64,000 bases of DNA from Alteromonadaceae bacterium Bs31 (GCA_900177435.1 FXAI01000008.1:50689-114688), one strand, 5' to 3'. Shown: positions 20,258 to 35,826, counted from the stretch's first letter. The notes: a model not told the origin generated them from the letters alone. A program made the numbers and translations.

Positions 20258-20414
20258 GGCTGCACTCCGCTTGCTGGATAAAATCACCGGGACGCGCAGT
20301 CTCCAGCGAAGATGGTTCAATTAGTGTGATCAGGCGCTAGATTACAGCTCGAATGTGGCGTATTCCAGTATGGAAGATGACAGATTATGGCAGCACCAAG
20401 TGAGAGGGGCGGAT

Positions 20415-21599
20415 TTAATCGATGCAGGTTGTACACGCCACCATCACATAGCGGCCTGTGTGCTCGTTGCGGATGGGGCGCGGTTTGGCGTCCAGCGCAC
20501 TCATGGAGCGGTAAAGTTGGTTTTCTTCCTCAATGGTTCTGCGTTCGTGTTCGAAGGGGTAGAGCAAGCCACCCATGCCGCCGCTGGCAATATAGGCTTC
20601 CGGGTTTCTTAAAATAGAGCGTACATGCAGCAATTCATGCAGCAGCGCATCGGCGGGAGAGGCTACACAGTGAGCGAGCTTGTCTTCGCAGCCGCGCTGG
20701 AATTTTAGCCTGGCTCCAAACTGGGGATCGAAAAAAACCTTTGCCGATTCAACATGGAGTTTGCTGCCACTTACCTCGGTGCGGAAGCTGCGTTTTTCAA
20801 AGTGTAGTTGCCAGGCAAGGTTGTCGAGGTTTTCAAACAGCTCAATTACATGGGGAAACTGACTGTAGTAATCAGCCAGGGATTCGAGTTCATAGTTGAT
20901 ATCCTTCGGGTCTTTCATGGAAGGCTGAAAATGGTGTTGCAGCAGCCTCAGTATTGAAAGGCTACTTGCAGAATCTGAAAGCGGCGCGAAGGTTTCCTTG
21001 TGGTTTATCAAGTCCAGCAGGTTTTCATTCATTTCGCCCTCTTCGCTGGTCTGGTGGGCCTGAGGGGATGATAGGTGTAAGCTCTCGGAATAGTCTTCAG
21101 GCTCGCCACTCTCGGCTGCAAGGTTGGCGCTTACCGTCAACAAAAGCACCGGTAGCCATGGCTTGCGTTTTTCGCCCATAACCGCAGCATTTTTTGAGCG
21201 CCGTTCTTCTAGTAGCCTTAGGCGGTTATTGTGAGCAAAACTTTGTAGTTTTGCGAAAGTCTGCTGAGCGGTCTCCTCCAGCCCTACAGGATACACAATA
21301 TGCGGTTGACCATTGATGGTACAGGAGTGCAGGTAAACAGTGCCCGCTTCACTGTGGGCAAGAGCGTTGCCATACAGTTTTTGTGTGGAGATGGTAAAGC
21401 TGGTGTTTTCCATATTATTAAACTTATCCACCACTAATGAGAGCCCATAAGAGATACCCCAAGCATAGCTCAAAATAGCAGTGTTCGATTGTACGATAGC
21501 GAATAGCAGCTTCTGGTTTATATAATTAATAGTTTTGTGAATTGGTACCTGAGTTACACACCCGGGAAGTGGCTCACGGGCGCTGTGCGTTTTATGCAC
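20415..21599 (-). CDS. Hypothetical protein with a C-terminal HExxH (HELLHV) zinc-metallopeptidase-like motif. The start is uncertain; an alternative is the ATG at 21177-21179, giving a 254-aa product that begins with a signal-peptide-like segment.
   Basis: ALLHELLHVRSIL...EHERRTIEEEN. Internal MGEKRKPWLPVLLLTVSANLAA-ESGE resembles a Sec signal peptide. Confidence 0.4.
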   Translation of the reverse strand: MHKTHSAREPLPGCVTQVPIHKTINYINQKLLFAIVQSNTAILSYAWGISYGLSLVVDKFNNMENTSFTISTQKLYGNALAHSEAGTVYLHSCTINGQPHIVYPVGLEETAQQTFAKLQSFAHNNRLRLLEERRSKNAAVMGEKRKPWLPVLLLTVSANLAAESGEPEDYSESLHLSSPQAHQTSEEGEMNENLLDLINHKETFAPLSDSASSLSILRLLQHHFQPSMKDPKDINYELESLADYYSQFPHVIELFENLDNLAWQLHFEKRSFRTEVSGSKLHVESAKVFFDPQFGARLKFQRGCEDKLAHCVASPADALLHELLHVRSILRNPEAYIASGGMGGLLYPFEHERRTIEEENQLYRSMSALDAKPRPIRNEHTGRYVMVACTTCID

Positions 21600-21724
21600 A
21601 AAAGTTGCGAGTGAGGTATGGTTAAGGCTGTGCTGCTAGCTTTGATGTATTCAATGCCTGCATGGCTATTTATTCTACAGAGCAGAAAGTACACTGAGTG
21701 GAAAGAATAAGAGAGGAAGAGTAG

Positions 21725-22108
21725 ATGCTATATAACGCTAAATGTCACTGTGGTGCGGTTCAAGCCGAGGTAGAAGCTCCCGAGCATATAGATTGCTATC
21801 GTTGTAACTGTTCAATGTGCTCCCTTACCGCTTACCTTCACCTCATTGTACCCAAGTCTAAGTTTAAATTACTGCACGGCCAGGACAGCATTGAAAGCTA
21901 TTCTTTTAATACCGGCGTAGCAAAGCATACCTTTTGCAAGCGTTGCGGTATAAAAGTTTTTTACACACCCCGCTCTAATCCGGATGGTTACAGCGTAAAT
22001 GTGCGCTGTTTACATCCCCAGCCACGTTCTATTGGTATTGAAAATTTTGATGGGAACAACTGGGAGGAGAGTGCACATAAGCTGGCCGGCTTAAGTAAAG
22101 AAAATTAA
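21725..22108 (+). CDS. GFA family protein (glutathione-dependent formaldehyde-activating / CENP-V-like zinc domain).
   Basis: Cysteine pattern CHCGAV...CYRCNCSMC...CKRCG. Confidence 0.7.
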   Translation: MLYNAKCHCGAVQAEVEAPEHIDCYRCNCSMCSLTAYLHLIVPKSKFKLLHGQDSIESYSFNTGVAKHTFCKRCGIKVFYTPRSNPDGYSVNVRCLHPQPRSIGIENFDGNNWEESAHKLAGLSKEN

Positions 22109-22125
22109 TCGTTTGAGTTGGCAGT

Positions 22126-22737
22126 ATGTACGAATTTTTTGTTCCAGCAATTTTATTCAGTTTAACCGGAGCGGTAACACCCGGGCCTAACACCATAATG
22201 CTGATGAGTAATTCGCTAAATTACGGCGTGCGTTTAACACTCCCGGCCTATCTGGGAGTGTGCCTGGGCTTCACCATAATGTTTGCGGCCATTGCGCTTG
22301 GTTTAGGTGCCTTGTTTGTTCAGTTTATATGGTTGCACACCCTGGTTAAAATTGTGGGTGGTGTATATCTGCTGTTTCTGGCCTGGAAAATTGCAAACTC
22401 AGGGAGAGTAAAGCTGGGGGCCAGAGAACAAAAACCCATTACTTTTTTTCAGGCAGCGGCTTTTCAGTGGGTAAACCCAAAGGCAGTTTTACTTGTGGTG
22501 GGTTCAGTGGCCACATTCACCAGCCCAGGCGAAAATATTCTTCTACAGTCACTTGTGCTGTGCTTGATTTTCCTGTTCGCAGGTCTAATTGGTATGGCTG
22601 TGTGGGTGGTTTTTGGTTCCTCTATGAGAAGGTTCATTAACACCGATAAAAAAGCCGCTTATTTTAACGGTACTATGGCCGCTTTATTGGTGATTGCCAT
22701 CGTGCCGCTGTTGCTCGTTGGTGTGCCCAGGCCTTAA
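22126..22737 (+). CDS. LysE/RhtB family amino-acid exporter.
   Basis: N-terminal AVTPGPNTIMLMSNS motif and six predicted TM helices over 203 aa. Confidence 0.8.
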   Translation: MYEFFVPAILFSLTGAVTPGPNTIMLMSNSLNYGVRLTLPAYLGVCLGFTIMFAAIALGLGALFVQFIWLHTLVKIVGGVYLLFLAWKIANSGRVKLGAREQKPITFFQAAAFQWVNPKAVLLVVGSVATFTSPGENILLQSLVLCLIFLFAGLIGMAVWVVFGSSMRRFINTDKKAAYFNGTMAALLVIAIVPLLLVGVPRP

Positions 22738-23012
22738 AAGTCGATATCCGGCCCATCGCTATCCCTCTGTTGAGATCTTAGGCTACTTACTAGTGTGCGT
22801 ATGATTTTGAACGGGAGATCGATAATAATTTCTATCAAATCCAAAAGCGGGCTGTCCTTTGAGTTTGGCGGCCACAAGTAGTGTGCAAGAATAAAGGACA
22901 GCGGGCAGATTATAAATACAAAGATATCAAATCCGCTGGCGAGCAGGTCATACAGAGTATAGCAGCCGGTAAAAAAACAAACTATTGAAAGGAATATTCT
23001 TAGCTCGTCCAC
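22734..23012 (-). CDS. Small hypothetical membrane protein.
   Basis: Hydrophobic 92-aa ORF with a 4-bp overlap on the lysE stop. No recognisable family. Confidence 0.25.
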   Translation of the reverse strand: MDELRIFLSIVCFFTGCYTLYDLLASGFDIFVFIICPLSFILAHYLWPPNSKDSPLLDLIEIIIDLPFKIIRTLVSSLRSQQRDSDGPDIDF

Positions 23013-23041
23013 GCCTATGTTTCCTATGATCTTTTTCGCTA

Positions 23042-23221
23042 TTATTTAATGGCCTCTTTTATTTCCTGCATTGCTTTCATCATGTCTTCGTCCAGCTCTG
23101 CGGTATTGATTTTTTTTATAATATTGGAAAGCACGCGTTTCTCGTTGTCGTCCACTACGCCATCGCGTTTTGCAAGTGAAAATAGCTCCCTTAGTTCGCT
23201 TGCATCCAGTTTACCGTCATT
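23042..23221 (-). pseudogene. Possible remnant of a TerB-like (DGxxDxxEL repeat) small protein. The N-terminal part of the called ORF runs into an inverted-repeat element.
   Basis: C-terminal portion reads NDGKLDASELRELFSLAKRDGVVDDNEKRVL..., reminiscent of TerB tandem acidic motifs. There is no plausible ATG or RBS in that region, and the ORF's first 30 codons lie inside the inverted repeat at 23249-23272. Confidence 0.2.
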
Positions 23222-23248
23222 GGCGAAGCAATTGATAGAACGAAAACA

Positions 23249-23523
23249 AAGGAACCTCTGAGTAAGTCCAAAATGTCTCTGCGTGACCTGGAGCGTACAG
23301 GTGCAAGGCAAATTTTGCCGTTAATGGCCTAAAGTCCTTAACAAAAAATTTAACGCCGCAGATGTGCGCTCCAGGCCACGCCCTTCGGGGCTCCACAGGT
23401 TTTCTCTGCTCTGCGTTGAACTTTTTTGACTTAACCCGTTAGGCCTGCAAAAGTTCGTCTTGATCAGAAAAAACCTGTGAAGCCAGAGGCATCTTGGACT
23501 TAATCAGAGGTTCCTTAAGCTCC
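23249..23523. repeat. MITE-like element or long imperfect palindrome of about 270 bp, bounded by 23-bp inverted repeats that extend imperfectly to about 40 bp.
   Basis: aaggaacctctgagtaagtccaa at 23249-23272 and ttggacttaatcagaggttcctt at 23495-23517 are reverse complements with one mismatch. The motif TTAATCAGAGGTTCCyTArGCT also occurs at 5156-5177. Confidence 0.4.
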
Positions 23524-23557
23524 AAGTAGTCTCTGCTTTCTGTCATGTGGCGTTCTC

Positions 23558-24085
23558 CTAGTCAAATTTAGTGTTTATAAAATGTTTAATGTCTGAGCGT
23601 TTGGGGTGCGCATCTACCCATTCTTTAAACGCTTCTACTTTTGAAAAATCGCTCTCTCCAATGATTTTAGAAAAGTGCGCATGCATACTGGACTTTTCTT
23701 TTTGTCGGCGGATATTGCGTTGCCAGGCCTCGGTAAACACCGAAGAGAGTTTCTTATGAAGGTCGAGGGTTTTTACCAGGTCCCACTCACCGGCGTCGAG
23801 CCATACTTCATCGCAGTGAGAGCACAGCTCCAGCCGGTTTTGCGTGTTTACGCCAATACGGTATTTGGTCATCATACCGCTGCATTTAGGGCATTGTTTG
23901 GCACCTGCGGCTTCTTCCGCGAGTTCGGTGTGTATGTCGCTAATTTCGTGGCTGTGCTCAGACCAGAAACGATAGTTCATGAGTGGCAGCAAGGCACCTT
24001 TGCATTTGGGGCAACTTGCAGCTAAAAGCCCATGTTCAAGTTCGCTGGGTTCCAGCTCGGTATTTTTACAGCTACAACATTTCAT
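23558..24085 (-). CDS. Tandem zinc-ribbon protein (two zf-TFIIB-like CxxC...CxxC ribbons plus a C-terminal domain of unknown function).
   Basis: CSCKNT...CPKCKG and CPKCSGMM...CSHCDEVWLDAGEWD, matching the C..C.GvWlD.gEl pattern. Its ATG at 24083-24085 abuts the stop of the upstream PLD-like gene. Confidence 0.6.
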   Translation of the reverse strand: MKCCSCKNTELEPSELEHGLLAASCPKCKGALLPLMNYRFWSEHSHEISDIHTELAEEAAGAKQCPKCSGMMTKYRIGVNTQNRLELCSHCDEVWLDAGEWDLVKTLDLHKKLSSVFTEAWQRNIRRQKEKSSMHAHFSKIIGESDFSKVEAFKEWVDAHPKRSDIKHFINTKFD

Positions 24086-24777
24086 TGTTTGCCTCCGTAT
24101 TTTTCCCAAAGCCCCTCAAAGCAGTTGATAAATTCCCGAACTGCCTTTGGGTGATGAGTGATGAGAATATTTTCCTGGTTTCGTTCACTGGCGCTCCGTG
24201 TCCAGTTAAAGCTCCCGTTAAGTAATATAGCTTTATCGAAAACAGCAAACTTGTGATGCATATGGTTAGTGCTGTTGTCCATTCTTACATCCAAGCCTTG
24301 GCGTATTAATAAGTCGATATCCGAGCCATCATCGTTTGATTTATCGTCATCTGTAATGATGCGTACGTTTATGCCGCGCTTGTGAGCACTGATGAGGGCT
24401 TCGCTGATGCGGTTGTCAGAAATCGTAAACACGCATATATCGATACTGGACTTTGCTTTATGGCAGCTATCCAATATCGCCCTGCGACATTCCTCTCCGG
24501 GGCTGAAGTAGCTTTTAGGTGGCTGTATAGCGGCACTGCCATCCAGTGCCTTAATGCTCCGTTCCAGCCACTGCAGGGCTCGATTCGCTTGTGGGCAGCC
24601 TGTTTCGAATAGGTGATGCCTGAATAAATCGAAGGCACGATTTTTTAAAAATCGTACGTCTTCTTCGTCCAGTGTGGCGGCTAAGTTGCGAAGACTTTGT
24701 TTTTCTTCACCACTCAGGCGGTAGTCTTCAAAGGTTTGTTTTAACGAGTTTTCTAGAGACTGTTTTGATGTGCTCAT
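24082..24777 (-). CDS. Phospholipase-D superfamily protein with a single HKD motif (Nuc-like endonuclease / PLD-like).
   Basis: HKD motif HHKFAVFD...GSFNWT. The N-terminal 90 aa are helical with no signal peptide. A 4-bp ATGA overlap joins it to the upstream rhomboid gene. Confidence 0.75.
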   Translation of the reverse strand: MSTSKQSLENSLKQTFEDYRLSGEEKQSLRNLAATLDEEDVRFLKNRAFDLFRHHLFETGCPQANRALQWLERSIKALDGSAAIQPPKSYFSPGEECRRAILDSCHKAKSSIDICVFTISDNRISEALISAHKRGINVRIITDDDKSNDDGSDIDLLIRQGLDVRMDNSTNHMHHKFAVFDKAILLNGSFNWTRSASERNQENILITHHPKAVREFINCFEGLWEKYGGKQ

Positions 24778-25328
24778 GTTCGCAACTTCTTTCTGGCCAT
24801 TAAGTAGGCACAGAGTACTCCGCTTAGCGCCCCGAATAAATGGGATTCAAAGGATATGCTGGCATCTCCGGGCAGGACGCCGTACACCATACCGCCGTAA
24901 AAAAAAGCCACGAAAACAGCGACGGCAATATTGCCAAAACTTCGCTGAAACCAGGCCATTGCGATAGAAAGGCTCCAAAGGCCGAATATCCAGCCACTGG
25001 CACCTATATGAATAGAAGGGCGCCCGAAAAACCAAACCAGCAGGCCTGTGAGCGTGATGATAAAAAGGCTGCTTTTGACATAGAAGCGAATACCCCGGAG
25101 TAAACACAGGGCGCTGAAGATGCACATGCCAAACAGGTTATTTAGCAAGTGGCCCCAGCTGCCGTGCAGAAACGGAGCGGTAAAAATATATGGCAGGCTG
25201 CGGGCGTCGTGAGGCGTAATGCCATAGTGTAGAAGGCGACCGCTTAATAGTATATTCAGCAGGTGGACGCCCACCATGGCAAGCACCACCCAGCTCAACA
25301 GTTTTACCTTCTCGTCAAAACCTTTCAT
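24774..25328 (-). CDS. Rhomboid family intramembrane serine protease.
   Basis: Six TM helices, GASGWIFG (the GxSG catalytic Ser) and a downstream His in the last helix (HLFGALSG). Confidence 0.75.
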   Translation of the reverse strand: MKGFDEKVKLLSWVVLAMVGVHLLNILLSGRLLHYGITPHDARSLPYIFTAPFLHGSWGHLLNNLFGMCIFSALCLLRGIRFYVKSSLFIITLTGLLVWFFGRPSIHIGASGWIFGLWSLSIAMAWFQRSFGNIAVAVFVAFFYGGMVYGVLPGDASISFESHLFGALSGVLCAYLMARKKLRT

Positions 25329-25339
25329 ATCTGCCTTAA

Positions 25340-28300
25340 CTAAAGCTGTTTGCTTCCTGCCAATTTTTCCAGCGATCGAAGCTGCTCAGATACTTCTGAC
25401 ATTTTATCGTGGGTGCGTAAATCAATTTCCAGCTTTTTGTCCATGCTCCTAACAAGGGGAAATATGCTGTTCTCGATGGTGTCTGCCAGTACTTTGAGTA
25501 ATTGATCTATTCCTGGAACCGGCTGGTTTACCACTTCTACTTTGGGCGCTTCTTTATTGGTATTCGCCAGTGCGAGTGCTTGCAGGCCGTCTGCAAACTT
25601 ACTCAAGGCTGCGCGCAGTAGCTTACGTTCTTTGTCTATGGCTTTAGCTTGTTGCTCGCTGGCCCCGTCTTTTGAGCTATTTTCCGCGCTAGCCGCTAAA
25701 TTGCGAACGCCGCTAACTAGGTCCGCCAGTTGGGCAACTACCTTGCTGCCTGTATCAGTATCATCACCACCCATGGCTTTATTGCGTAGAAAGTCGGCCT
25801 TAATTTGTTGCCAGCGTTGGCTTTGTAGCTCGGTCATATTGCCGCGCAATTCAGCAAGTTTTAGAAGGTTTTCTTCCGCACCTGCTGTGAGCAACTGAGC
25901 TTCGCCCAGGTAGTGGTCTTCAATCAGCTGCATGAGTTCACTCTGGTTCATTACGGCTGATATTTTTTCGCCCATTTTATTCATGTTGCGGTAGCTGCCT
26001 TGTAACTTAAAAGGCGGCTCGTTGCGGTATTTATCTGCCTGTGCGGCAGAAACAATGTATTGCTGATTAATTTTTAGCACCACGTCACGAATTACGTAGA
26101 GCTTTTTAAGCACGTCGACTATTTCGTTAATTTCTGCACCGCTGTATTGGTGGCTTAAATCAGTTGTGGCTACCTCTTTATCGTTAGCCAGATCCATAAG
26201 AAGGTAAACATCTTTAATGTCGCGGGTGGCTAGTGGCGCGAGTACCGGGTTGGAGGTAAGGCTGTTTTCGATATAGCTCATGGCGAACTGCTCGTCCATT
26301 CCGCCGAGGATATCACCCAGGTTATAAATGTCCGCCCTGTTGGCCAACATGTCCGGGATTTTAAATACCTCGCCAGATTCGGTATAGGGGTTACCCGCCA
26401 TGACTACGCAGAACTTTTTGCCTCGCATGTCGTAGGTTTTTGTTTTTCCTTTCCACACGCCTTCAATGCGTCGTGTGCCATCACACAGGGAAATAAACTT
26501 TTGCAGAAACTCGGGGTTGGTATGCTGTATATCATCCAGGTAGAGCATGACGTTATTGCCCATTTCCAGAGATAAATTGAGTTTATGCAGTTCCTGTCGT
26601 GCGGTGGCATTGGGTGCTTGTTCCGGGTCGAGAGATAATACCTCGTGGCCGAGAGAAGGGCAGTTGATCTTCATGAAGATCAAGCCCAAGCGGCTGGCGA
26701 CGTATTCCATCAAGGTGGTTTTACCGTAGCCGGGAGGTGAGATCATCATCAACAGGCCCATGAGGTCCGTTCGCTTATTTTCACCAACGGTTCCCATCTG
26801 CTTGGCGAGGTTGTCCCCAATAATGGGAAGATAGGCTTCGTTGATAAGCCTGTTGCGAACAAAGGAGCTTAAGGGGCGTGCTTTAAATTCTTCAAGCCGT
26901 AAGCTATCTCTTTCGCGATTGACGATGTTTTGTCGAGTTTCCAGATACTCGCGATAGCCGGTAACAAATTCGCTGCGGTGGTGGTTGAGCCTGAGGAAGA
27001 AATCGTCCACGGCGATAGAGAGAACGCGGTTCTCCACCCGCTTATGCTCGCCCATGAGGCCTTCGACACTTAACTCCAGATCGGCCTCTGTCAGCCTTCT
27101 ATCGATGCGCTCATCGGCGTTAATAAGTGCAGCCGCTTCGGGAATGTAGCGTTCGAGATGTTGCAGTTCTTTATCTTTCACCAGCGCGGAAAGCCAGGCG
27201 CAGCTGAGCTTCCAGCGTTCCGCTGGCCAGCCCAGCATTTTTTCCAGGGCCACTTGAAAGCGCCGCCAGCTATCGTCGTCCAGGCTGCGTTTTAGTTCAT
27301 CTGCCAGTTGCCTTGCGTATTTGCTGCCGATAAATTCGGTGCGCTCACGGCCCAACTCCGTAACCAGGTATTCCGCTGCTCGCCGTATTACCAGTGGGCT
27401 TACATTTATGGGGTGAATGCTTATAAACTCTCGCATAGCAGTGTGGACTTCTTCTGCCAGTAGCTCGTGTGCTTCGCCGCTGGTGAAGTGATCGCGCATT
27501 TTTGCTGCAGAAAGGGCACGCTCGGTCCAGGTTTCATAGGTGAGGCGTTTGCTTTTTAGCTGCTCGGATATACGTTGAATATTTGCCCAGAACACCTGCG
27601 CCAGCCCCCGGCTTTTGGGGTCGAAAATCAACAAGTCCGCGGCATCCATTGCGGGTAACAAGCGCTGCAGTATTTTTGCCGCGTCGTGGTCGTGAATGCC
27701 TTTTTCGTAACCCTCTTTGTAGCGAGGGGTGGCGAACTCTCTTACCAGTTTAAGCAGGCTGTTTTCATCCAATAGAGCTTGCGCGAGTACTTGCTGGTTT
27801 AAATTGTCTTCCTGTCGTTCGGCAGCATGAATAATACTGGCGGCGAGATATTCTGCCCGGTAAACGGAATCGCTTTCGGACTCCAGAGTTACCTGCCAAT
27901 AGGGTTGCAGTTCTTTTAGCGCGGGGTCTTCAATGGGTTCAAAGAAATCCGTTCCGGTAAGATGAATGTTCAGGTCGTCACCGCGAGGTAAGATGGTGAG
28001 ATCAAGCTCTTGGGTATTAACGCTGAATTTATGGCGTGGGCCCAGTTTAATAACCGAGCCGCCCCCTTCGTAAATATCTGTTTTATCACGCAGTACACGC
28101 AGCGCCTGTTCTTTTGCTGCTTTAAATTTTGATTCAATATCGTCCGCTTTTACGGCGGAACTGAGTTCACGCAGTTGCTGGATAAATTCACGTATTTTTA
28201 ATACCAGCGCATCGGACGCGAAATAGGTGTTGAGCTTGTCCGCTTCGGTAAACTTGGTGGAGCGTTTTTCTATACTGCTGAGTACTCGATTGGCGGCATC

Positions 28301-30658
28301 GGCAATTGACTGCGCGCGACGTTCCCGATCATCAAGTAAACGTTGCTTATGGGATTCAAAAGTTTCGTAGATCTCCTCCCGCTTGGACATAATATCCGTA
28401 AGAAATTGATCGTACTCACTAAACTGGCTTTCGAGTTCTTCCAGTTGAACTAATAGTCTCGACATCTGCTCGTCGCAGCTCTCTGGCGAATTTGCCATAC
28501 CCAGGGCATTGGTGATGCTTTGGGTAAAGAGCTTAAACTGCGCTGCGAATTCAGCGATAGCTTCCGATGAACCAAGGTTTTTTTGTTTGTGCCGTGCGTC
28601 GGCTTTGCATTGGTTGAGTTTTGCGTACACTTCGGAGATAGCATCTATAATCCGAGTGCGCATTGTGGTGTCTTCAACTTTTAGGGTTGATAGCAGTTCC
28701 GACAGTAAATCCAAACCAGCAGCGGTTTTTTCCACCGTTTCAATAAGCGGGTTAAGCTCTGCAATGGTTGCTACGGTTTCGACGTCTGCATTTATGGTTT
28801 CAATTTTTAGATAGTAAGGCTGTAGCGCGTTCTCATCGGCCAAAAATTCTACCGTTCGTTCACTAAGCTGTTGCTGAGCCTGAGCCAGTTGCTCTTCCAT
28901 TTTACTGATGGCAGCGGTATTAATGTAACGGTAGGATTTTATGGTGGCGAGCTGGCCAGCGTGCTGGCGCAACTCGTCCAATGCCTGCACATAGGCTTCG
29001 GCACTGTCCCAGGATGACGAGCGAATGGTTTCTATCAGTTTTTTGTGTTTTGCTTTTGCGTCGTTTAAGGCTTGGCTGCTTTGTTTGCGTATACTTTCTA
29101 CTTTGGCAAACTCATCGATTGCCAGCTCCGCAGTGGCAGAAACCTCCCGCAGCGTTATTGCGATGGTTTCCAGTCCATCGACCCCTGATTTAGATTCCGC
29201 CACCCAATAGTGATTATCGAAAACTTTTAATGCGGCGTTGGATAGCTCTTCGTAAAGCCGAACGGATACCGATTGATTATCGATAGTGCGGCAAACACTG
29301 AGTAAGTCTGAAATACCGCGTACCAGTGGTGCATTACCAATGCGGCCAAGAAAAGATTGGCTTGCTGGTGCTTTGCTGGCGAATTCGTCACTGATGTAAG
29401 GCGTGTGCCAGATTTGCATGGGGTGAACGCGTGTGGGTTCTTCCTCGGCGGAAAAAATTACCAGCTGGCCTGCGTCTGATAGCGCATAGCCGTGTGCAAA
29501 AATGGGGTTGGCCAGCTTTTTATCAATCATGTTGTAGGCCATCAGGCCCACGATGCCCTCGGCAGGCTCGTAGAAAACATAAAGCACATCTTCACCGTTG
29601 GGTGAGCGAATCATGCGTTTAAAGCGCAAGCCTTCGTGCTCTTCATCGAAAGTTTTGTTTTCTCCGCTTTGCAGGTAATAACCGCCGGGGAAAACAATGC
29701 CATGGTCTTCAGGCAGTTGAACGCAGGAAGCGCCTATGGCGTCTATCCTGTTCACTTCTGCGGTGAGAGTATTAAAAACGAAATAGCGCCATACATCTTC
29801 CCTGTAGGGCAGTATTTTAATAAGAATTAAATCGCCAAGGGCGGCGTAGCAGTATTCAGCATCGTCGATGGATTGCGTTTTATCTTCAACATCTTCGCGA
29901 TAGACTCCCAGGCCATCTTCAGTATTGTTTTCGATTTTAATGGTAAGGTCGCCACCCACGGCTTCTACAAATACCTTGTCTAAAATATTTACATGGGGGT
30001 GCCTGCCGTGAACGGCATCTTCTCGGGTACACTCTGTCCATTCAAAATCATAGGCGGGTGGCAGCTGAATATCTCGTTCACCACGGTTGTCTATATAGTC
30101 TACTTTCTTTCCGTCGGGGGAGACTGCCCAGCGAAAGACTCGGATATCTTCTAGCCGCTCACCAATCTGGAAGCCCATTAACAATTTGCCATTTTTAATG
30201 GTTAGCTCAACCAGCTTGGTATGCTTGTAGTAGCGATAGAGTTCAGTGAAATCCTGAACGAAGCTTCGATTGGCGAGAAAAGAGCTTTCGGTGGCTTGTT
30301 CTTCCAGCTGAAGGTTTTCGTCTTCGCCTTTCAATTTAAACAGGGCGAAAACATCATCCACCAGAGTCTCTTTTTTCAGGCCGATAAAAACGTTGTAGCC
30401 AAAGAGCAGGGTATCACCGACTTGAACGATATCCCGAGCAATACAGTTGTTTTCCGTACGCACGCGAACTCGTGCTGCCACAGCCATTTCTGAGCTGCCG
30501 AATTCACTGAGACGCGCGGCATTTAAATTTCGGGCATGCTGTTCGAGAGTTTCGCCCTGCTCCAGCAAGCGCTTTTTCAATACCTCGTAGGCACCGCCTT
30601 CTGAAACGGCCTTGTCTACCAGGTTTTCTTCATTTTCCTGTTGACGATCTGTCGCCAT
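25340..30658 (-). CDS. Giant 1772-aa protein with an N-terminal globular region, a central region of about 600 aa of coiled-coil, and a C-terminal AAA+ ATPase (MoxR/AAA_5-like) domain followed by a further coiled-coil tail.
   Basis: Walker A SPPGYGKTTL, Walker B VMLYLDDIQ, sensor-1-like VVMAGNPY, and an Arg-finger-like MLANRADIYNLGDI. Long heptad-like stretches (e.g. EEQLAQAQQQLSERTVEFL...). RBS AAGGAAG 4 nt upstream of the ATG at 30658. Confidence 0.7.
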   Translation of the reverse strand: MATDRQQENEENLVDKAVSEGGAYEVLKKRLLEQGETLEQHARNLNAARLSEFGSSEMAVAARVRVRTENNCIARDIVQVGDTLLFGYNVFIGLKKETLVDDVFALFKLKGEDENLQLEEQATESSFLANRSFVQDFTELYRYYKHTKLVELTIKNGKLLMGFQIGERLEDIRVFRWAVSPDGKKVDYIDNRGERDIQLPPAYDFEWTECTREDAVHGRHPHVNILDKVFVEAVGGDLTIKIENNTEDGLGVYREDVEDKTQSIDDAEYCYAALGDLILIKILPYREDVWRYFVFNTLTAEVNRIDAIGASCVQLPEDHGIVFPGGYYLQSGENKTFDEEHEGLRFKRMIRSPNGEDVLYVFYEPAEGIVGLMAYNMIDKKLANPIFAHGYALSDAGQLVIFSAEEEPTRVHPMQIWHTPYISDEFASKAPASQSFLGRIGNAPLVRGISDLLSVCRTIDNQSVSVRLYEELSNAALKVFDNHYWVAESKSGVDGLETIAITLREVSATAELAIDEFAKVESIRKQSSQALNDAKAKHKKLIETIRSSSWDSAEAYVQALDELRQHAGQLATIKSYRYINTAAISKMEEQLAQAQQQLSERTVEFLADENALQPYYLKIETINADVETVATIAELNPLIETVEKTAAGLDLLSELLSTLKVEDTTMRTRIIDAISEVYAKLNQCKADARHKQKNLGSSEAIAEFAAQFKLFTQSITNALGMANSPESCDEQMSRLLVQLEELESQFSEYDQFLTDIMSKREEIYETFESHKQRLLDDRERRAQSIADAANRVLSSIEKRSTKFTEADKLNTYFASDALVLKIREFIQQLRELSSAVKADDIESKFKAAKEQALRVLRDKTDIYEGGGSVIKLGPRHKFSVNTQELDLTILPRGDDLNIHLTGTDFFEPIEDPALKELQPYWQVTLESESDSVYRAEYLAASIIHAAERQEDNLNQQVLAQALLDENSLLKLVREFATPRYKEGYEKGIHDHDAAKILQRLLPAMDAADLLIFDPKSRGLAQVFWANIQRISEQLKSKRLTYETWTERALSAAKMRDHFTSGEAHELLAEEVHTAMREFISIHPINVSPLVIRRAAEYLVTELGRERTEFIGSKYARQLADELKRSLDDDSWRRFQVALEKMLGWPAERWKLSCAWLSALVKDKELQHLERYIPEAAALINADERIDRRLTEADLELSVEGLMGEHKRVENRVLSIAVDDFFLRLNHHRSEFVTGYREYLETRQNIVNRERDSLRLEEFKARPLSSFVRNRLINEAYLPIIGDNLAKQMGTVGENKRTDLMGLLMMISPPGYGKTTLMEYVASRLGLIFMKINCPSLGHEVLSLDPEQAPNATARQELHKLNLSLEMGNNVMLYLDDIQHTNPEFLQKFISLCDGTRRIEGVWKGKTKTYDMRGKKFCVVMAGNPYTESGEVFKIPDMLANRADIYNLGDILGGMDEQFAMSYIENSLTSNPVLAPLATRDIKDVYLLMDLANDKEVATTDLSHQYSGAEINEIVDVLKKLYVIRDVVLKINQQYIVSAAQADKYRNEPPFKLQGSYRNMNKMGEKISAVMNQSELMQLIEDHYLGEAQLLTAGAEENLLKLAELRGNMTELQSQRWQQIKADFLRNKAMGGDDTDTGSKVVAQLADLVSGVRNLAASAENSSKDGASEQQAKAIDKERKLLRAALSKFADGLQALALANTNKEAPKVEVVNQPVPGIDQLLKVLADTIENSIFPLVRSMDKKLEIDLRTHDKMSEVSEQLRSLEKLAGSKQL

Positions 30659-30667
30659 GATTCTTCC

Positions 30668-30889
30668 TTAGCAGTCTGAATGCTCTGCCAGCTCTACATC
30701 AGTTTGTTCGTTGCTTTCCACGGTAAAAAGAGCGCTTGCCAAAAGGCCAGCCAGTAAGCCCGCTCCGGCACCCATTGCGGTACTGCTCAGCACGGAATTA
30801 TTCTTAGTACCGTGTATTGCGCCAAGCCCGGCTCCTATTGCGCTGGCCAGTGGTGTTATCTTTTTTAAAGAAATATCGTTGTCGTCCAT
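30668..30889 (-). CDS. Small glycine-zipper membrane protein (GxxxG/AxxxG repeats), 73 aa.
   Basis: AIGAGLGAIHG and AMGAGAGLLAGLLASA segments. RBS AAGGAAG before the ATG. It ends 10 nt before the giant ATPase gene. Confidence 0.5.
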   Translation of the reverse strand: MDDNDISLKKITPLASAIGAGLGAIHGTKNNSVLSSTAMGAGAGLLAGLLASALFTVESNEQTDVELAEHSDC

Positions 30890-30962
30890 CGTGCTTCCTT
30901 CTGGCTACTCGCCCTCGGTGTTTGTGGCGAGTTAAGAGGTTTTGGATAGCTGTGTCGGTAAC

Positions 30963-30997
30963 AATCAAAAAGCGGTGAAACCAAGGGCTTCACCGCA
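30963..30997 (-). terminator. Rho-independent terminator after the flotillin gene (read on the minus strand).
   Basis: Minus-strand sense GCGGTGAA-gcccttggt-TTCACCGC followed by TTTTTG. It separates the yqiJK-like transcript from the downstream five-gene unit. Confidence 0.55.
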
Positions 30998-31004
30998 AAG
31001 GACA

Positions 31005-32996
31005 TTACTCGGGTTTTACATCTGTTGTGGTGCTGGCCGCCTGGGCGCCTGCAGAGTAGGCCATCACTTTCTCCAAGAGGGTAGAGATGGTTGCGCTCTT
31101 GCCTGCTAGACCGTCTACCGCTTTGCCAATGGACAGAGATTTGGCAAAGTTATCAAAGAAGTGCGCTTCGCCGCCCACGATATCAATATGTGCTTTCTGC
31201 AGCGCGGTTGCCAGAACCTCGGCATTTTCTTTGGCGATTTCTTTGCCGGCTTCAATGGCTGCGATGGCTTCGTTAAAGGCGGTTTCCAGAGTCATGCGGA
31301 ATTCTTCGTGGTCACGAGCCTTATCGCTCATATTGCCCATGGCTTCGAATTTGTCTACAAGACCGTCTGCTTCGGCTTTGAATTGCTCGCGAGTAACCTC
31401 AGCTTTTGCTACGCCGGTTTCGCGTACGGCTTTGGCTTCGGCCTCACCTTTAAAGCCAATAACATTAGCCTCTGCAGTACCTTCTTTCTCCAGGGCCACA
31501 GCTTTTGCTTCTTGCGCTTTCGCTTCTGCTTCACCTTTGGAGGCAATTACACGAGCTTCTGCAACACCTTCCTTCTCCAGTGCGTCGGCTTTGGCTTCCT
31601 GAACCTTGGCCTCAGCAAGGCCGGAGGCGGCTTCTTCTGCCTGAACGCCTTCAGCCATTTTCTTCTTGGCGTCGGCCTCTTTAGCGGCGGCTTCAAGCTC
31701 TGCTTGTGCGAGAACTGTTATTTCCACCGATTTGTGTTTGGCAGCGAGCTCTTTTGCTTCCGCCTCTTTTACAGTTTGAACTTTTTCTTCTTCGGCTTTG
31801 GCTTCTGCTTCCAGAATTTTTACTTGCTTAATACGGTCTGCCTCGGAAACTTCACGAACTTCTTTGATTTTCTCTTCTTCAATGGCAACGGTTTTATCCA
31901 CCACTACACGTTCGCGGATAACGTTGGCAATTTCCTTTTTCTCCACTTCGATGGCTTTTTCTGCTTCAATACGCTGTAGCTCCACCTCTCTTTCGCGGGA
32001 GACGATTTCCAGGTCTTTCGCCCGGGTAACCTTTTCCACCTCAATGACTACTGCACGTTGACGGTTTTGCTCCGCAACCTCAATTTCACGCTGCTGATTT
32101 TCCTCTTGAACTTTTAGGTCCTGATCCACAAGTAAGGTCGCCATATCGGCTTTCTTGCGTTCTTCTTCCTGAATGCGTTTTGTTTCAGCTTCTTCTCGCG
32201 CTTGAATACTCAGGATCTCCCGCTGCTGACGAGCCTCGGCATCGGACTGCTGGCGCTCCAGCTCCAACATGGCTTCAACGGTTTCCACATTTTTCTTTTT
32301 AATGGCCAGCTCTTCGTCGCGCTCGAACACGTTGGTTTGAACGTTTTGTGTGGCAGTAAGCTCGGTGATTTTGCGAATACCTTCGGCGTCGAGGATGTTG
32401 GCTGGGTCGAGAGAGGATTTAGGTGTTTGTTCCAGGTAGTCGATGGCCACGTCTTCCAACGCGTAGCCATTAAGATCATTTCCGATGACCTCAACAATTT
32501 TATCGCGGAACTCTTGCCTGTCTTCAAAAAGCTTAACGAAGTCCAATTGCTTGCCAACTGTTTTTAAGGCTTCTGAAAATTTTGCGTTAAACAATTCATT
32601 GACTGCGTGTTTATCGGACGCTCGATCGGCGCCAAGTGACTTGGCAACCTTTAAGACGTCTTCCGGTGTTTCATTAACGCGCAGATAAAAGGCGACGGTA
32701 ATATCTGCTCGCATATTATCGGCACATATCAGCCCCTCTTTCCCTCGTCGGTCCACTTCAAGGGTGATTAATGATATGCGCATTAATTCCTTTTTGTGTA
32801 TAACCGGCAATATCCATGAGCCAGTAAAAAATACTTTGGGTTTAGTGCTTAGGTCATTTTTAATTAAAGCAACGCCTTGTTCTACCTTTACATAGAAAGC
32901 TTTAAATAGCGCCATTATGCCGAGGATGAATAGGAATAGTACGCCAACGACAATAACTATCATCGTAAATAAAGGCAGATGATCTGGCATAGGCAT
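31005..32996 (-). CDS. yqiK: Flotillin-family protein (SPFH/band-7 domain plus a long Glu/Ala/Lys-rich coiled coil), YqiK-like.
   Basis: N-terminal TM segment, SPFH core (GVALIKND...ITLEVDRRGKEGLICADNMRADITVAFYLRV) and a flotillin-type EA-repeat region with internal ~25-aa tandem repeats. Confidence 0.85.
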   Translation of the reverse strand: MPMPDHLPLFTMIVIVVGVLFLFILGIMALFKAFYVKVEQGVALIKNDLSTKPKVFFTGSWILPVIHKKELMRISLITLEVDRRGKEGLICADNMRADITVAFYLRVNETPEDVLKVAKSLGADRASDKHAVNELFNAKFSEALKTVGKQLDFVKLFEDRQEFRDKIVEVIGNDLNGYALEDVAIDYLEQTPKSSLDPANILDAEGIRKITELTATQNVQTNVFERDEELAIKKKNVETVEAMLELERQQSDAEARQQREILSIQAREEAETKRIQEEERKKADMATLLVDQDLKVQEENQQREIEVAEQNRQRAVVIEVEKVTRAKDLEIVSREREVELQRIEAEKAIEVEKKEIANVIRERVVVDKTVAIEEEKIKEVREVSEADRIKQVKILEAEAKAEEEKVQTVKEAEAKELAAKHKSVEITVLAQAELEAAAKEADAKKKMAEGVQAEEAASGLAEAKVQEAKADALEKEGVAEARVIASKGEAEAKAQEAKAVALEKEGTAEANVIGFKGEAEAKAVRETGVAKAEVTREQFKAEADGLVDKFEAMGNMSDKARDHEEFRMTLETAFNEAIAAIEAGKEIAKENAEVLATALQKAHIDIVGGEAHFFDNFAKSLSIGKAVDGLAGKSATISTLLEKVMAYSAGAQAASTTTDVKPE

Positions 32997-33029
32997 GGTG
33001 AATCTCCTTGTTGATTAATTTAGATTGTG

Positions 33030-33713
33030 TTATTCGCCTTTAAAGTCGCTTTCAGAAACAACTTTATAAAGATTTTCTTCGGCGATGTATTCGAGCAGTA
33101 CAACTCTATCGCCTCGTTTAAATTGTTCTTCTTTGTAAGGCCTGACTTTTACAAGAAGGCCTGCTCCGCCGTCTTCGACGGTGGCTTCGCCAAACTTTTT
33201 GTCAACTCGTCCGGTTCGAACTATGGCTACCTGGCCAACTATGGTTTTCTCCACTTCTTGATTGGCGGCTTGGAAAATGGGGCGTAGTGGTCTGATTACT
33301 GTGGCAGTTATCATCGCTGATACGTAGGCTGTGCCGATAAATACAGGAATAGCTACTAAGAATTTGAGCAGTGCACCAGGTACAAAGGGAAACAGGAAAT
33401 AGACGATTAGAAAGCTGATTACCCAGCCAAGCAGTGCGATTAGAGTAAGTACTATGGTGAGCGGCACCGCGTTGAGACCAAGCTTGAGTAGAAGCCCGGA
33501 CATCACGTTAAGATTACTCATATCATCAAAATTATTGATATCAATATCTTCCGGAATGTCGAAGTCAAGAATGTCGATTTCAACCATACCTAGTACCGCC
33601 AGTGCCCAGTACAGTATGCAGAAAATTAGAAGAACCGTGAAAACAACAGTAGGAAAAGAGGAGCAAATCTCATAGAACGGGTCCATCTTTTCACTGAAAA
33701 ATATTGCAAACAT
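33030..33713 (-). CDS. yqiJ: NfeD-like inner membrane protein (YqiJ-like partner of flotillin) with a C-terminal OB-fold region.
   Basis: Multiple TM helices, then VGQVAIVRTGRVDKKFGEATVEDGGAGLLVKVR. It sits immediately upstream of the flotillin gene, as in yqiJK. Confidence 0.7.
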   Translation of the reverse strand: MFAIFFSEKMDPFYEICSSFPTVVFTVLLIFCILYWALAVLGMVEIDILDFDIPEDIDINNFDDMSNLNVMSGLLLKLGLNAVPLTIVLTLIALLGWVISFLIVYFLFPFVPGALLKFLVAIPVFIGTAYVSAMITATVIRPLRPIFQAANQEVEKTIVGQVAIVRTGRVDKKFGEATVEDGGAGLLVKVRPYKEEQFKRGDRVVLLEYIAEENLYKVVSESDFKGE

Positions 33714-33730
33714 TGGTTCCTCCTATACGG

Positions 33731-34084
33731 TTATTGTTCTTTTATATCGTTCACAGGCGGCGTAGACAGGGCATCCACTATGAGCGCAGTGGCTATCACC
33801 GCGAATATAATACTGCCGGGATAAATGCGTTCAAAGGCGATAGCTGCGGAAGTAAACCAGAGTAAACAGCTAATTGGAATGATGGCGCTCAATATAATGA
33901 TGTCTTCACCCCAAATTTCTGCCAAGCTGCCGCTTATATAGAACACCAAGCCGAGTAAAATTAGCCAGGGTTCGGCGAATAGTGCGCCGAGTACCAGTGC
34001 CGCGATAAGTCCAAGAGAGCGATGCTCAATATATTTCGCTCCATAACCGTCCAATGGGGGGAGTTTAAATCCATAGTGTTTCAT
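33731..34084 (-). CDS. Small integral membrane protein, possibly YjfL/DUF350-like.
   Basis: 117 aa with four hydrophobic helices, positioned after a YjfJ-like PspA gene. The family assignment is by context only. Confidence 0.4.
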   Translation of the reverse strand: MKHYGFKLPPLDGYGAKYIEHRSLGLIAALVLGALFAEPWLILLGLVFYISGSLAEIWGEDIIILSAIIPISCLLWFTSAAIAFERIYPGSIIFAVIATALIVDALSTPPVNDIKEQ

Positions 34085-34197
34085 TCTGCTTCTCCTTTTG
34101 CTTTCTCCTGGAAATTTTTAAATGTGCCATCCGTGGCGTGTTACAGGCCTCCTGCCGTAAATCCCTTTGTTACTTCTCCTTTTCGCCTCCGTGCGAC

Positions 34198-34890
34198 CTA
34201 ATTGCTACTTTTTTTCTTTAATCGTTCCAGTACGTCTGCTGCGCCAGTAGCGGAGGGCGATATACCCGCTTTTTCAAGCTTTTCTTGCAGAGAGTCTTGC
34301 TGGCTTTCCTCTGCAAGTTCGTTGGCTGCTTTCATTTGCGCTGCTTTCAGTGCCTGTTTTTCCTTTATGCGCTCCAGTGAATCCATGGCGGTGCGCAGTT
34401 TGGAATTGGAGCCGCTGTGCCGTTCTGCTACAGCAGATTGAGCGCGCTGTACGCTTTCTGTGGCTTTAACGGTATCTATTTGCTGCTTTAATCGTTTGAT
34501 GTTTTGCTCTGCTGCTTTTATCGCGCGCCTTAAATCGTCGGCACTGCTGGCAAAACCCGTTGCAGCTTCTCCCTCTGTGCGATACTGGTTTTCGAGCGTC
34601 GCTATTTTTTCCGCCACTTCCAGAGCGAGCGCTTGATCATCCTTCTCCAGGGCCTGTACGGCATAGCCTTCATATTCTGTGATGTTCGTTTTTAATTGCG
34701 CGCATTTTTCTTCGGCGAGCTTTTGTCTGGCAATGATGGCCGTTAACCCGTCTCTGGATTGTCTCAGCTCTTCCGTAGCGTCTCGCACTTCCTGATCCAG
34801 TATGCGCAAGGCTTGGCTGTCTAGCACGGCTTCACCCGCTTCGTGGACACCGCCTCGTAAAGCGGTAATCATTTTCGCCCAGATATTCAT
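34198..34890 (-). CDS. PspA/IM30 (Vipp1/ESCRT-III-like) family protein, YjfJ-like.
   Basis: 230-aa all-helical protein. MNIWAKMITALRGG...LRILDQEVRDATEELRQ... matches the YjfJ/PspA N-terminal pattern and length. Confidence 0.8.
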   Translation of the reverse strand: MNIWAKMITALRGGVHEAGEAVLDSQALRILDQEVRDATEELRQSRDGLTAIIARQKLAEEKCAQLKTNITEYEGYAVQALEKDDQALALEVAEKIATLENQYRTEGEAATGFASSADDLRRAIKAAEQNIKRLKQQIDTVKATESVQRAQSAVAERHSGSNSKLRTAMDSLERIKEKQALKAAQMKAANELAEESQQDSLQEKLEKAGISPSATGAADVLERLKKKSSN

Positions 34891-34901
34891 TACATTCTCC
34901 T

Positions 34902-35540
34902 CTATGCCCTGGCATCCAGGGGGGTGGTTAATAAGTTGCTGTACGCTTCCGTTGCGTGGATAACGTTTGCAGCCAAGGTTTCGATTTCGAACAAGATGTT
35001 GGGTATTACAGAGGTGGCGCTCAGTGCACCGAACATCATGTAATAGCTCTTGCCGTCGCTTAGGGTGTCGAGGCTGATGGTGGAGAGCGGGAAGTACTTG
35101 TGAGTACGTAATACCGCGTCATTAAATTTGTTGGGGTCTTCCACATCCCCTGTTGGCCAGAGCACTGCTTCTACTACGATTTGCTCCCCGGCAGCTGTGA
35201 GGAAGAGTGGCAAATCGCCATACTCGCGCATGATGATGTGCAGTGTTGGCTCAACGCCATCAATCAGCTCAATATCGGCGTTGCCACTGGTGAACAGCTC
35301 TTCTTTTTTTAGCTCTTCACAAAGGCTTTCGCTTGACCAGCGCGGCAGGTTGATAGTTGTCATAGGCTTGTCTCCTGTATCCATGATCGGTTTTGGATTG
35401 ATATACCTTAGCTGCTTTTCTATGTTCGCAAGCAACTTGGCGTTCTCCGGGAGTATCCAGACTTCCTTTTTTACCAGGCCCATATCCCGCAGGCGCTGGC
35501 GATACTCTCGTTGGTAATGTGCAGATGACTTTGCTTTCAT
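34902..35540 (-). CDS. Conserved hypothetical protein that is first in the cluster (YjfI-like by position). Its N-terminus is basic and looks like a DNA-binding segment.
   Basis: MKAKSSAHYQREYRQRLRDMGLVKK resembles short basic DNA-binding leaders of small regulators. It is followed by an acidic domain of about 170 aa. The family is uncertain. Confidence 0.4.
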   Translation of the reverse strand: MKAKSSAHYQREYRQRLRDMGLVKKEVWILPENAKLLANIEKQLRYINPKPIMDTGDKPMTTINLPRWSSESLCEELKKEELFTSGNADIELIDGVEPTLHIIMREYGDLPLFLTAAGEQIVVEAVLWPTGDVEDPNKFNDAVLRTHKYFPLSTISLDTLSDGKSYYMMFGALSATSVIPNILFEIETLAANVIHATEAYSNLLTTPLDARA

Positions 35541-35558
35541 GGGTCCTACTCTATTTCA

Positions 35559-35613
35559 TTACATGTGAGATGTAAATAGCTTACATGTAATATATTTTGT
35601 TATTACATGTAAT
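35559..35613. promoter_or_regulatory. Three TTACATGTAA-type palindromic operator-like sites in the divergent promoter region.
   Basis: TTACATgtgagATGTAA at 35559-35575; TTACATGTAA at 35581-35590 and again at 35604-35613, spaced about 22 bp apart, in an AT-rich 145-bp intergenic region between divergent genes. Confidence 0.45.
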
Positions 35614-35826
35614 TTTTTTATAGCGATATTTCGCCTACTTTAAATTTCACACTATTCCACAGCGCTTGTTTGTGAATGGCCGGGGTTGCGCAATGTGCGA
35701 GGGTCACAAAGCCTGCGCTTGCTCGCGGGGGCGTTTTGTTCTGGGATGTCTGTCACTTCATTGCTTCCTTCAATGGCGCATTGTTTGGCTAAAGAAAAGG
35801 GCGTGCTCAGTGGGGTAGCACAGTAT

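Follow-up and report, generated by a model that had tools for sequence, protein, structure and literature searches.

A gene cluster of approximately 12.5 kb on the minus strand of a 64,000-nucleotide stretch of DNA from Alteromonadaceae bacterium Bs31 (GCA_900177435.1, FXAI01000008.1:50689-114688; hereafter the window, to which all coordinates refer) probably encodes a PspA–flotillin–AAA+ machinery for envelope stress and membrane remodeling. The cluster is co-directional from 35540 to 23042, and the five genes at 23558-30889, which encode a Gly/Ala-rich mini-protein, a giant AAA+ ATPase, a rhomboid protease, a phospholipase D (PLD)/Nuc-fold protein, and a zinc-ribbon protein, would form its distal part. 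An initial annotation, made from the sequence of the window, had treated these five genes as a unit of their own that resembles no described operon and had offered two interpretations, a conflict or defense module and a membrane-remodeling machinery. A precedent exists both in the gene neighborhood described by Ravi et al. (2024, mSystems, PMC11237479) and in the bacABCDEF cluster of Pseudomonas aeruginosa (PMC10948618), of which the window cluster is in all likelihood a member and a counterpart, respectively. The existence and the architecture of the system are already published, and the window carries a variant of the described neighborhood that is enriched in rhomboid, PLD, double zinc-ribbon, and small-protein genes. 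Membrane remodeling is the interpretation favored here because of the gene context, which combines a scaffold protein of the SPFH family, an NfeD-like partner, PspA, a CesT-like regulator, and an ATPase.

The evidence for this assignment comes from a comparison of all open reading frames (ORFs) of 41 genome loci encoding relatives of the giant with the genes of the window; further loci were added later. Only three families are common to different lineages, namely the giant itself, the 227-aa YqiJ-like protein, and the 663-aa flotillin. The YqiJ-like and flotillin genes are located directly upstream of the giant in every non-Sorangium locus that has upstream sequence (32/32), and these loci span the Gammaproteobacteria, Myxococcota other than Sorangium, Planctomycetota, Actinomycetota, and Deinococcota (at least five phyla). 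The gap between flotillin and giant is often 9–40 nt in the other phyla. The comparison shows an ancient invariant module consisting of the YqiJ-like, flotillin, and giant genes, to which the PspA and YjfI genes were added in the Gammaproteobacteria, where, as at 34198-35540 of the window, the genes ahead of the trio encode a DUF2170 (YjfI) protein and a PspA/IM30 protein. The limits initially drawn around the five genes are too narrow, since the sole cross-phylum partners of the giant lie upstream of the terminator that was taken as the start of the unit.

The upstream proteins were identified by different routes (table). The flotillin gave no Pfam match even at E = 10, and sequence searches of the PDB with the giant and the flotillin, as well as profile searches from two alignments, returned non-significant matches only. 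Because Pfam misses the flotillin, profile–profile comparison with the Escherichia coli proteins YqiK and YqiJ was needed. The 663-aa protein aligned with YqiK over 413 columns (hhalign probability 99.9%, E 9.6e-34) and the 227-aa protein with YqiJ (probability 91%, E 1e-6), the latter also displaying a weak Pfam YqiJ_N match (E 0.046). The flotillin is 43–84% identical across phyla. The two proximal genes were assigned with Pfam (PspA_IM30, E 2e-46; DUF2170, E 1.7e-48, residues 68-202 of the YjfI-like protein). The 117-aa hydrophobic protein encoded between PspA and YqiJ has no Pfam match, and among the compared loci (designated L001 and so on) homologues are found only in L004, L043, and L045.

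The giant consists of a helical hairpin, a beta-propeller-like DUF3686 domain (Pfam, E 1e-207, residues 38-484), a long helical region that includes DUF7902 (610-693), one MoxR-like AAA+ module (AAA_5/AAA, 1303-1430; AAA_5 score 26.3 bits with a cut-off of 22), and a helical tail. A structure model of residues 1-520 (predicted local distance difference test, pLDDT, of 79.7) contains a helical hairpin, approximately 30 beta-strands at 59-418, and then helices, and Foldseek matches this N-terminal part to propellers. In structure, the AAA+ region most closely resembles CbbQ and NorQ (Foldseek, E about 6e-5), followed by MCM and RuvB. With the homologues from 12 other taxa (Pseudomonadota, Myxococcota, Actinomycetota, Planctomycetota, and Deinococcota), the window protein shares on average 80% identity in the AAA core and 54% in the propeller. 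The motifs of Walker A (SPPGYGKTT), Walker B (YLDDIQH), and sensor 1 (MAGNPYTE) as well as PDMLxNRAD are invariant in all 13 taxa. This degree of conservation indicates that the giant is under strong purifying selection. The giant has more than 6000 homologues, yet the DUF3686 domain forms only 741 clusters at 50% identity, the mark of a slowly evolving family of full-length proteins (1600–1900 aa). Within the MoxR class (RavA, CbbQ, NorQ), the giant shares the AAA_5 domain, the structural matches, and the GNP...PDMLxNR layout, but it differs by the fusion of the ATPase to approximately 1250 residues of propeller and helical arm, by a Walker B motif with DD instead of DE, and by the lack of a VWA partner gene, as no VWA family is present among the Pfam assignments of the neighboring genes in the window and in six annotated relatives.

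The neighborhood described by Ravi et al. (2024) combines a CesT/Tir (YjfI)–PspA pair with a YqiJ/YuaF protein that has several transmembrane segments and an OB-like domain at its C-terminus, a band-7/flotillin protein, and a beta-propeller/coiled-coil/AAA+ ATPase. Its gene set, gene order, and ATPase architecture agree with the window and were reproduced here: a DUF2170 gene is followed by PspA/IM30, a YqiJ/YuaF-type protein, a flotillin, and the large propeller/coiled-coil/AAA+ ATPase. According to the same study, PLD is optional in some Proteobacteria, an abbreviated trio is widespread, and the PspA/YjfI combination is also present in a Bacteroidota genome (PMC11237479). The study is purely computational and takes the mechanism no further than “chaperone-like / membrane dynamics”; for PspA homologues that lack an associated AAA ATPase, it describes the control of assembly as unknown (PMC11237479). 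The rhomboid does not occur in the text or the supplement of Ravi et al. (2024), nor in Popp et al., and no description of the zinc-ribbon, Gly-zipper, and TerB-like genes, the TTACATGTAA operator, or the YjfI extension (see below) was found in Ravi et al. (2024).

The “biofilm-associated cluster” bacABCDEF (PA3732-PA3727) of P. aeruginosa is transcribed as a single transcript, and reverse transcription PCR (RT-PCR) detected read-through from bacD to bacE (PMC10948618). Its first two products are a DUF2170 protein (BacA) and a PspA-like protein (BacB); BacA acts negatively on BacB-F, which increase 6–13-fold when bacA is disrupted (PMC10948618). The published RT-PCR primers encode GLILKV of the YqiJ-like protein, RIIEVI and EGDFFN of the flotillin, and TENNCIA, which corresponds to residues 68-74 of the giant. 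BacC, BacD, and BacE are assigned to the trio because the primers encode these conserved motifs, and PA3728 is listed as an “ATPase.” The bac cluster differs from the window cluster in having six genes instead of eleven, and the phenotypes reported for it (biofilm, rhamnolipid, virulence) were observed in a pathogen and not in a marine polysaccharide degrader. A sigma-54 promoter was proposed for P. aeruginosa, whereas no -24/-12 site resembling TGGCACG-N4-TTGCW with three mismatches or fewer is present at 35541-35700 on the minus strand of the window, where a TTACATGTAA array is found instead; the sigma-54 promoter is a regulatory detail that does not define the neighborhood.

Parts of the system are found in better-known operons. 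The E. coli operons yqiJK and yjfIJ(KLMC) encode homologous YqiK, YqiJ, YjfI, and YjfJ/PspA proteins, but no giant ATPase, rhomboid, or PLD adjoins the yqiJK locus of E. coli K-12. Both operon types are fused with the giant on the Pseudomonas fluorescens megaplasmid pQBR103 (L050, NC_009444.1 83395-102942), where one co-directional array of ten annotated genes is made up of a yjfIJ-KLMC-type operon (DUF2491, DUF350, DUF1190, and a glutathionylspermidine-synthase-like gene) and the YqiJ–flotillin–giant trio. In Bacillus subtilis, the pspA-ydjGHI (samGHI) operon encodes PspA, an SPFH protein that recruits PspA to the membrane, and a protein with two zinc ribbons, but no AAA+ ATPase, rhomboid, or PLD, and YdjH is a TPM-domain protein. 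The zinc-ribbon protein of the window is likened to YdjG/SamG by literature description only.

The rhomboid, PLD, zinc-ribbon, and small proteins are lineage-restricted add-ons that are facultative yet recurrent, as the comparison of loci shows. The linkage of the five genes was recognized correctly in the initial annotation, in that rhomboid, PLD, and zinc-ribbon genes recur next to the giant elsewhere, sometimes in a different order or orientation. The rhomboid gene follows the giant in Agarilytica, Saccharophagus, Teredinibacter, and a TARA contig, is on the opposite strand in a Marinagarivorans metagenome-assembled genome (MAG), and directly follows PspA on pQBR103. The PLD gene directly follows the giant in Vibrio campbellii and is located within the cluster in L043 (an 89%-identical relative), Teredinibacter haidensis, and the TARA contig. 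The zinc-ribbon gene has a downstream position in Agarilytica, Motiliproteus, and others, whereas it converges on the cluster in Halomonas and in Arenicella lies upstream of YjfI in divergent orientation; its family is small (32 matches), and at least 11 of the 32 are on contigs equal in size to giant-bearing ones. Because the linkage recurs even though the positions are shuffled, the accessory genes appear functionally connected to the system.

The rhomboid (Pfam Rhomboid, E 5e-18, 66 bits with a cut-off of 22.6) keeps its catalytic motifs in 12 orthologues: HGSWGHLLNN in transmembrane segment (TM) 2 (HxxxxHxxxN), GASG in TM4, and SFESH with the TM6 His. An assignment as rhombosortase (TIGR03902) was rejected (33.4 bits against an equivalog cut-off of 84). 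The PLD protein (PLDc_2, E 6e-32, 110.7 bits) carries HHKFAVFD...NGSFNWT, an HxKx4D...GSxN motif that is kept in seven aligned sequences (the window protein and six homologues), and a conserved N-terminal helical domain of approximately 95 aa; inspection revealed no signal peptide. Some of its relatives are named “cardiolipin hydrolase” by their sources, and the best family models are nucleases that score below cut-off. The equivalogs tried in NCBIfam were rejected, NucT with 68 bits for the best model against a cut-off of 211, and DrmC (36 against 133), DpdK, and cardiolipin synthase with scores far below cut-off. The zinc-ribbon protein has two Zn_ribbon_TFIIB stretches (Pfam), and the metal-binding motif of the first ribbon is conserved. 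In T. haidensis (L047:10708-11231) the zinc-ribbon gene is present as two overlapping ORFs that each match one half, which suggests a frameshift that reflects either a pseudogene or a sequencing error.

The two remaining accessory proteins are small. The 73-aa mini-protein has homologues at the equivalent position in L001-L003, L043, L046, and L047, and its Gly-zipper_YMGG match is below threshold (16.9 vs. 28.9 bits). Of the domains initially proposed, those of the giant, the rhomboid, the PLD protein, and the zinc ribbons were recovered with Pfam, and the glycine zipper remained sub-threshold. A further protein of approximately 80 aa displays sub-threshold Pfam TerB and EF-hand matches on its intact orthologues; its gene usually follows the zinc-ribbon gene and precedes the giant in Saccharophagus degradans.

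The 5' end of the cluster carries a candidate regulatory element. Two TTACATGTAA palindromes, 22 nt apart, are located directly 5' of the first cluster gene, and 11 related gammaproteobacterial loci (L001-L005, L009, L027, L043, L045, L046, and L050, pQBR103) carry one to three copies of the same 10-mer, spaced approximately 22–25 nt apart, immediately before the YjfI-like gene. These boxes co-occur with an N-terminal extension of YjfI (60–70 aa, KSSAxYQREYRxRLRxxGLVKKExW) that is conserved in the relatives and absent from paralogues. The extension-less paralogue has no boxes upstream, and in the Thiodiazotropha locus YjfI lacks the extension and the 10-mer is missing. The array and the extension look like an autoregulatory operator and its DNA-binding domain; we infer the DNA-binding role, because the extension gave just a weak MazE-like match (E 0.12). 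Autoregulation by YjfI would fit the negative role of BacA in P. aeruginosa.

PspA/Vipp1 proteins are the bacterial homologues of ESCRT-III, and SPFH/flotillin proteins form large membrane cages. To our knowledge, the question of how flotillin cages are disassembled has not been settled. By analogy with Vps4 and ESCRT-III, a membrane polymer with a dedicated AAA+ remodeler, the giant may act as a motor on flotillin and/or PspA. The flotillin and its NfeD-like partner would form a scaffold or cage on the inner membrane, to which PspA, as an ESCRT-III-fold polymer, would be recruited to seal or remodel the stressed membrane. The giant would oligomerize through its single AAA+ module and spend ATP to assemble, disassemble, or recycle the flotillin and/or PspA polymers, with the propellers on their long helical arms serving as binding heads. 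In this way a MoxR-class motor might perform a Vps4-like task; the analogy is one of function only, as Vps4 belongs to the classical clade and carries an MIT domain, whereas Pfam and Foldseek revealed a MoxR-like ATPase and no MIT domain in the giant, even though a PspA gene is present.

The accessory proteins can be placed around such a scaffold. The SPFH proteins HflK/C gather the AAA protease FtsH, and mitochondrial SLP2 gathers PARL, itself a rhomboid, and YME1L. The arrangement in the window parallels these hubs as a working analogy, and the rhomboid might process a transmembrane component of the microdomain, for which the mini-protein (a plausible rhomboid substrate) and YqiJ are candidates. 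The PLD protein may edit an anionic phospholipid (nucleic acid being less likely as a substrate), the zinc-ribbon protein may be an adaptor comparable to YdjG/SamG of B. subtilis, and binding of the TTACATGTAA boxes by the YjfI extension probably places the cluster under autoregulation. As a joint proposal, the giant would be the dedicated ATP-driven remodeler of flotillin cages and/or PspA polymers and thus the bacterial counterpart of Vps4, and in marine Gammaproteobacteria the system would have grown into a membrane-repair unit, in which the rhomboid cleaves the mini-protein or YqiJ and the PLD protein remodels cardiolipin or phosphatidylglycerol so that the two edit the proteins and lipids of the microdomain. 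Autoregulation would come from a YjfI protein whose acquired N-terminus binds DNA at TTACATGTAA. Taken with all of its parts, this proposal is tentative and has the odds against it. If true, the giant would be the Vps4 counterpart that PspA systems seemed to lack. Its gene is located beside a flotillin gene in five or more phyla, across which the motor is approximately 80% identical, and this makes the giant a strong and directly testable candidate for the remodeler. With the rhomboid, PLD, and double zinc-ribbon proteins and the small membrane peptides that it adds, the variant in the window suggests concrete substrates and partners.

Several observations weigh against the assignment to a PspA–flotillin–AAA+ machinery. 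We infer all steps of the mechanism that go beyond gene linkage, and the model of the AAA+ region has a mean pLDDT of 68.6. A literature search for PA3727 did not establish the identity of BacF. The PLD gene stands alone, in unrelated contexts, in Hahella and Saezia. Among the 18 Sorangium loci, the flotillin gene is adjacent to the giant in one, 4–7 kb away in five, and not within 10 kb in 12. Finally, a strong terminator lies between the flotillin and the distal genes and could separate two transcription units here.

The last two observations bear on the possibility that two independent units merely abut, a PspA–flotillin operon that runs to the terminator, followed by a giant–rhomboid–PLD–zinc-ribbon operon of its own with an unrelated function. 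The terminator (30996-30972) is an intrinsic one that consists of 11 base pairs, seven of them G-C, followed by TTTTTGATT; as initially noted it is located just upstream of the five genes, and it is the best-scoring site in 22700-36000. It occupies a gap of 115 nt, and a crude scan found terminator-like hairpins at the equivalent position in several gammaproteobacterial relatives, though not in all; many Sorangium genomes encode the giant without a flotillin gene nearby. Against this stand the adjacency of flotillin and giant across at least five phyla and the bacD-bacE read-through in P. aeruginosa, and a terminator inside an operon is a common device for stoichiometry that would here provide many scaffold and few motor subunits. 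Because of the cross-phylum adjacency and the RT-PCR result, the genes on both sides are regarded as one functional system despite the terminator, and two unrelated units are unlikely. The terminator may attenuate transcription, and the gaps and ATGA overlaps between the genes fit co-transcription.

The initial suggestion of a defense or conflict module, in which the ATPase would sense infection and the PLD and rhomboid would act as effectors of killing or arrest, is not supported. PA3728-PA3732 are induced by phage infection of P. aeruginosa and have been called “phage shock proteins,” one copy of the system is carried by the megaplasmid pQBR103, and in PADLOC and NCBIfam the PLD protein bears a weak resemblance to DrmC, DpdK, and Mko proteins. 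The PADLOC matches of the PLD (DrmC, DpdK, MkoC; best E 5e-10) are far below the family cut-offs, however, and PADLOC 2.0 gave no match for the giant, the rhomboid, the zinc-ribbon protein, or the mini-protein. No copy is present in the phage collection, and the ten plasmid records listed are 1.7–11.9-Mb chromid- or chromosome-sized replicons or 390–560-kb megaplasmids (eight records) and 4-Mb Proteus records (two). An envelope-stress (“phage shock”) response is expected to be induced by phage, and most of the loci compared lack the would-be effectors, PLD and rhomboid. An AAA core that is 80% identical across phyla, in stable synteny with PspA and flotillin, is unlike the fast-evolving and patchy genes of defense systems. 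A defense function is accordingly quite improbable, and the presence of ATPase, nuclease-fold, and protease genes in one cluster does not necessarily indicate defense.

A DNA-repair machine, in which the PLD would be a nuclease of the Nuc type and nucleic acid would be bound by the zinc ribbons, is very improbable: the names that sources give to homologues of the giant (“DNA repair ATPase”; “ATPase involved in DNA repair” in Pfam), the NucT nucleases as best NCBIfam matches of the PLD, albeit below cut-off, and the name “Zn-finger nucleic acid-binding protein” that JGI gives to some zinc-ribbon homologues speak for it, but Pfam and profile searches with the giant revealed no domain of a nuclease, a helicase, or an SMC protein and none that binds DNA, its invariant neighbors are membrane proteins, and no DNA-repair gene is conserved nearby in the 41-locus comparison. 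The name “DNA repair” has no traceable experimental basis, since a literature search found no mention of DUF3686, and the present assignment corrects a misleading database name.

The gene order of the cluster is YjfI-like, PspA, small TM protein, YqiJ-like, flotillin, terminator, Gly-zipper, giant, rhomboid, PLD, zinc-ribbon, and a disrupted TerB-like gene. All cluster genes are on the minus strand, and the five ORFs of the initial annotation were confirmed at their positions (table). The listed ORF of the zinc-ribbon protein opens at an upstream TTG (24109), and its 175 aa are counted from the ATG.

Table. Positions of the cluster genes and associated elements in the window, listed along the minus strand.
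Feature	Position	Strand	Basis
Operator-like array: two TTACATGTAA palindromes and one variant	35558-35612	-	5' of first gene
YjfI/BacA-like protein, DUF2170 (CesT/Tir-like) with 67-aa N-terminal extension	34902-35540	-	Pfam
PspA/IM30 (YjfJ-type, ESCRT-III-fold family) protein	34198-34890	-	Pfam PspA_IM30
117-aa hydrophobic protein	33731-34084	-	closest relatives only
YqiJ/YuaF (NfeD-like) membrane protein, 227 aa, core partner	33030-33713	-	hhalign
Flotillin/YqiK-type SPFH protein (TM, band-7, coiled coil), 663 aa, core partner	31005-32996	-	hhalign
Intrinsic-terminator-like hairpin between flotillin and Gly-zipper genes	30972-30996	-	terminator scan
73-aa Gly/Ala-rich two-helix mini-protein (accessory)	30668-30889	-	sub-threshold Gly-zipper_YMGG match
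Giant ATPase, 1772 aa	25340-30658	-	Pfam, structure models, Foldseek
Minimal six-TM rhomboid serine protease, 184 aa (accessory)	24774-25328	-	Pfam Rhomboid
Cytoplasmic single-HKD PLD/Nuc-fold protein, 231 aa (accessory)	24082-24777	-	Pfam PLDc_2
Protein with two TFIIB-type zinc ribbons and conserved helical tail, 175 aa (accessory)	23558-24085	-	Pfam, alignment
First 10 codons (MTESRDYLEL) of split gene of approximately 80 aa	23517-23546	-	alignment with intact L043:17110-17352
268-bp element like a miniature inverted-repeat transposable element (MITE), 33-nt terminal inverted repeats and nested repeats	23249-23516	.	inside small gene
Rest of split small gene (CFRSINCFANDGKLDASELRELF...), weakly TerB/EF-hand-like	23042-23248	-	alignment with relative

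The junctions were read from the sequence. YjfI-like and PspA genes are separated by 11 nt, the Gly-zipper gene and the giant by 9 nt, and the giant and the rhomboid gene by 11 nt, in place of the 10 and 12 nt reported initially for the latter two. The ATGA overlap between the rhomboid and PLD genes was reported correctly, and the stop codon said to abut the ATG of the zinc-ribbon gene is a second ATGA overlap.

The inverted-repeat element that was initially placed at the end of the five-gene unit, as a possible mobile boundary, is real but differently placed. It has arms of 33 nt (23249-23281 and 23484-23516, 91% complementary) and nested repeats, and it is single-copy within the window. An alignment with L043 places the 268-bp insertion after codon 10 of the small TerB-like gene, which thus reads MTESRDYLEL, insertion, CFRSINCFANDGKLD.... 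Because the element is inserted inside this sixth gene of the cluster, the inverted repeat does not form the cluster boundary, and the boundary of a mobile island was rejected as an explanation, the gene that it splits being intact in relatives.

Two observations concern the surroundings of the cluster in related loci. In L043, the closest relative, the cluster is followed directly (17819-21693) by another YjfI–PspA pair, whose YjfI is of the short form, together with Ion_trans_2, DUF2491, DUF350, and DUF1190 genes; in the window, LysE and GFA genes of opposite orientation (21725-22737) take the corresponding place. Two contigs from MAGs labeled “Flavobacteriales” (L003) and “Lentisphaeria” (L007) encode giants that are 70–73% identical to the protein of the window and keep the gene order, probably as a result of mis-binning or else of recent transfer.

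Elsewhere in the window, the minus strand at 13002-20320 encodes an alpha-2-macroglobulin (A2M, 1655 aa) and a PBP1C-type penicillin-binding protein (PBP, 783 aa), with the A2M stop and the PBP start overlapping by one base. The two genes form what we take to be the usual periplasmic defense pair and appear unrelated to the PspA–flotillin–giant cluster.

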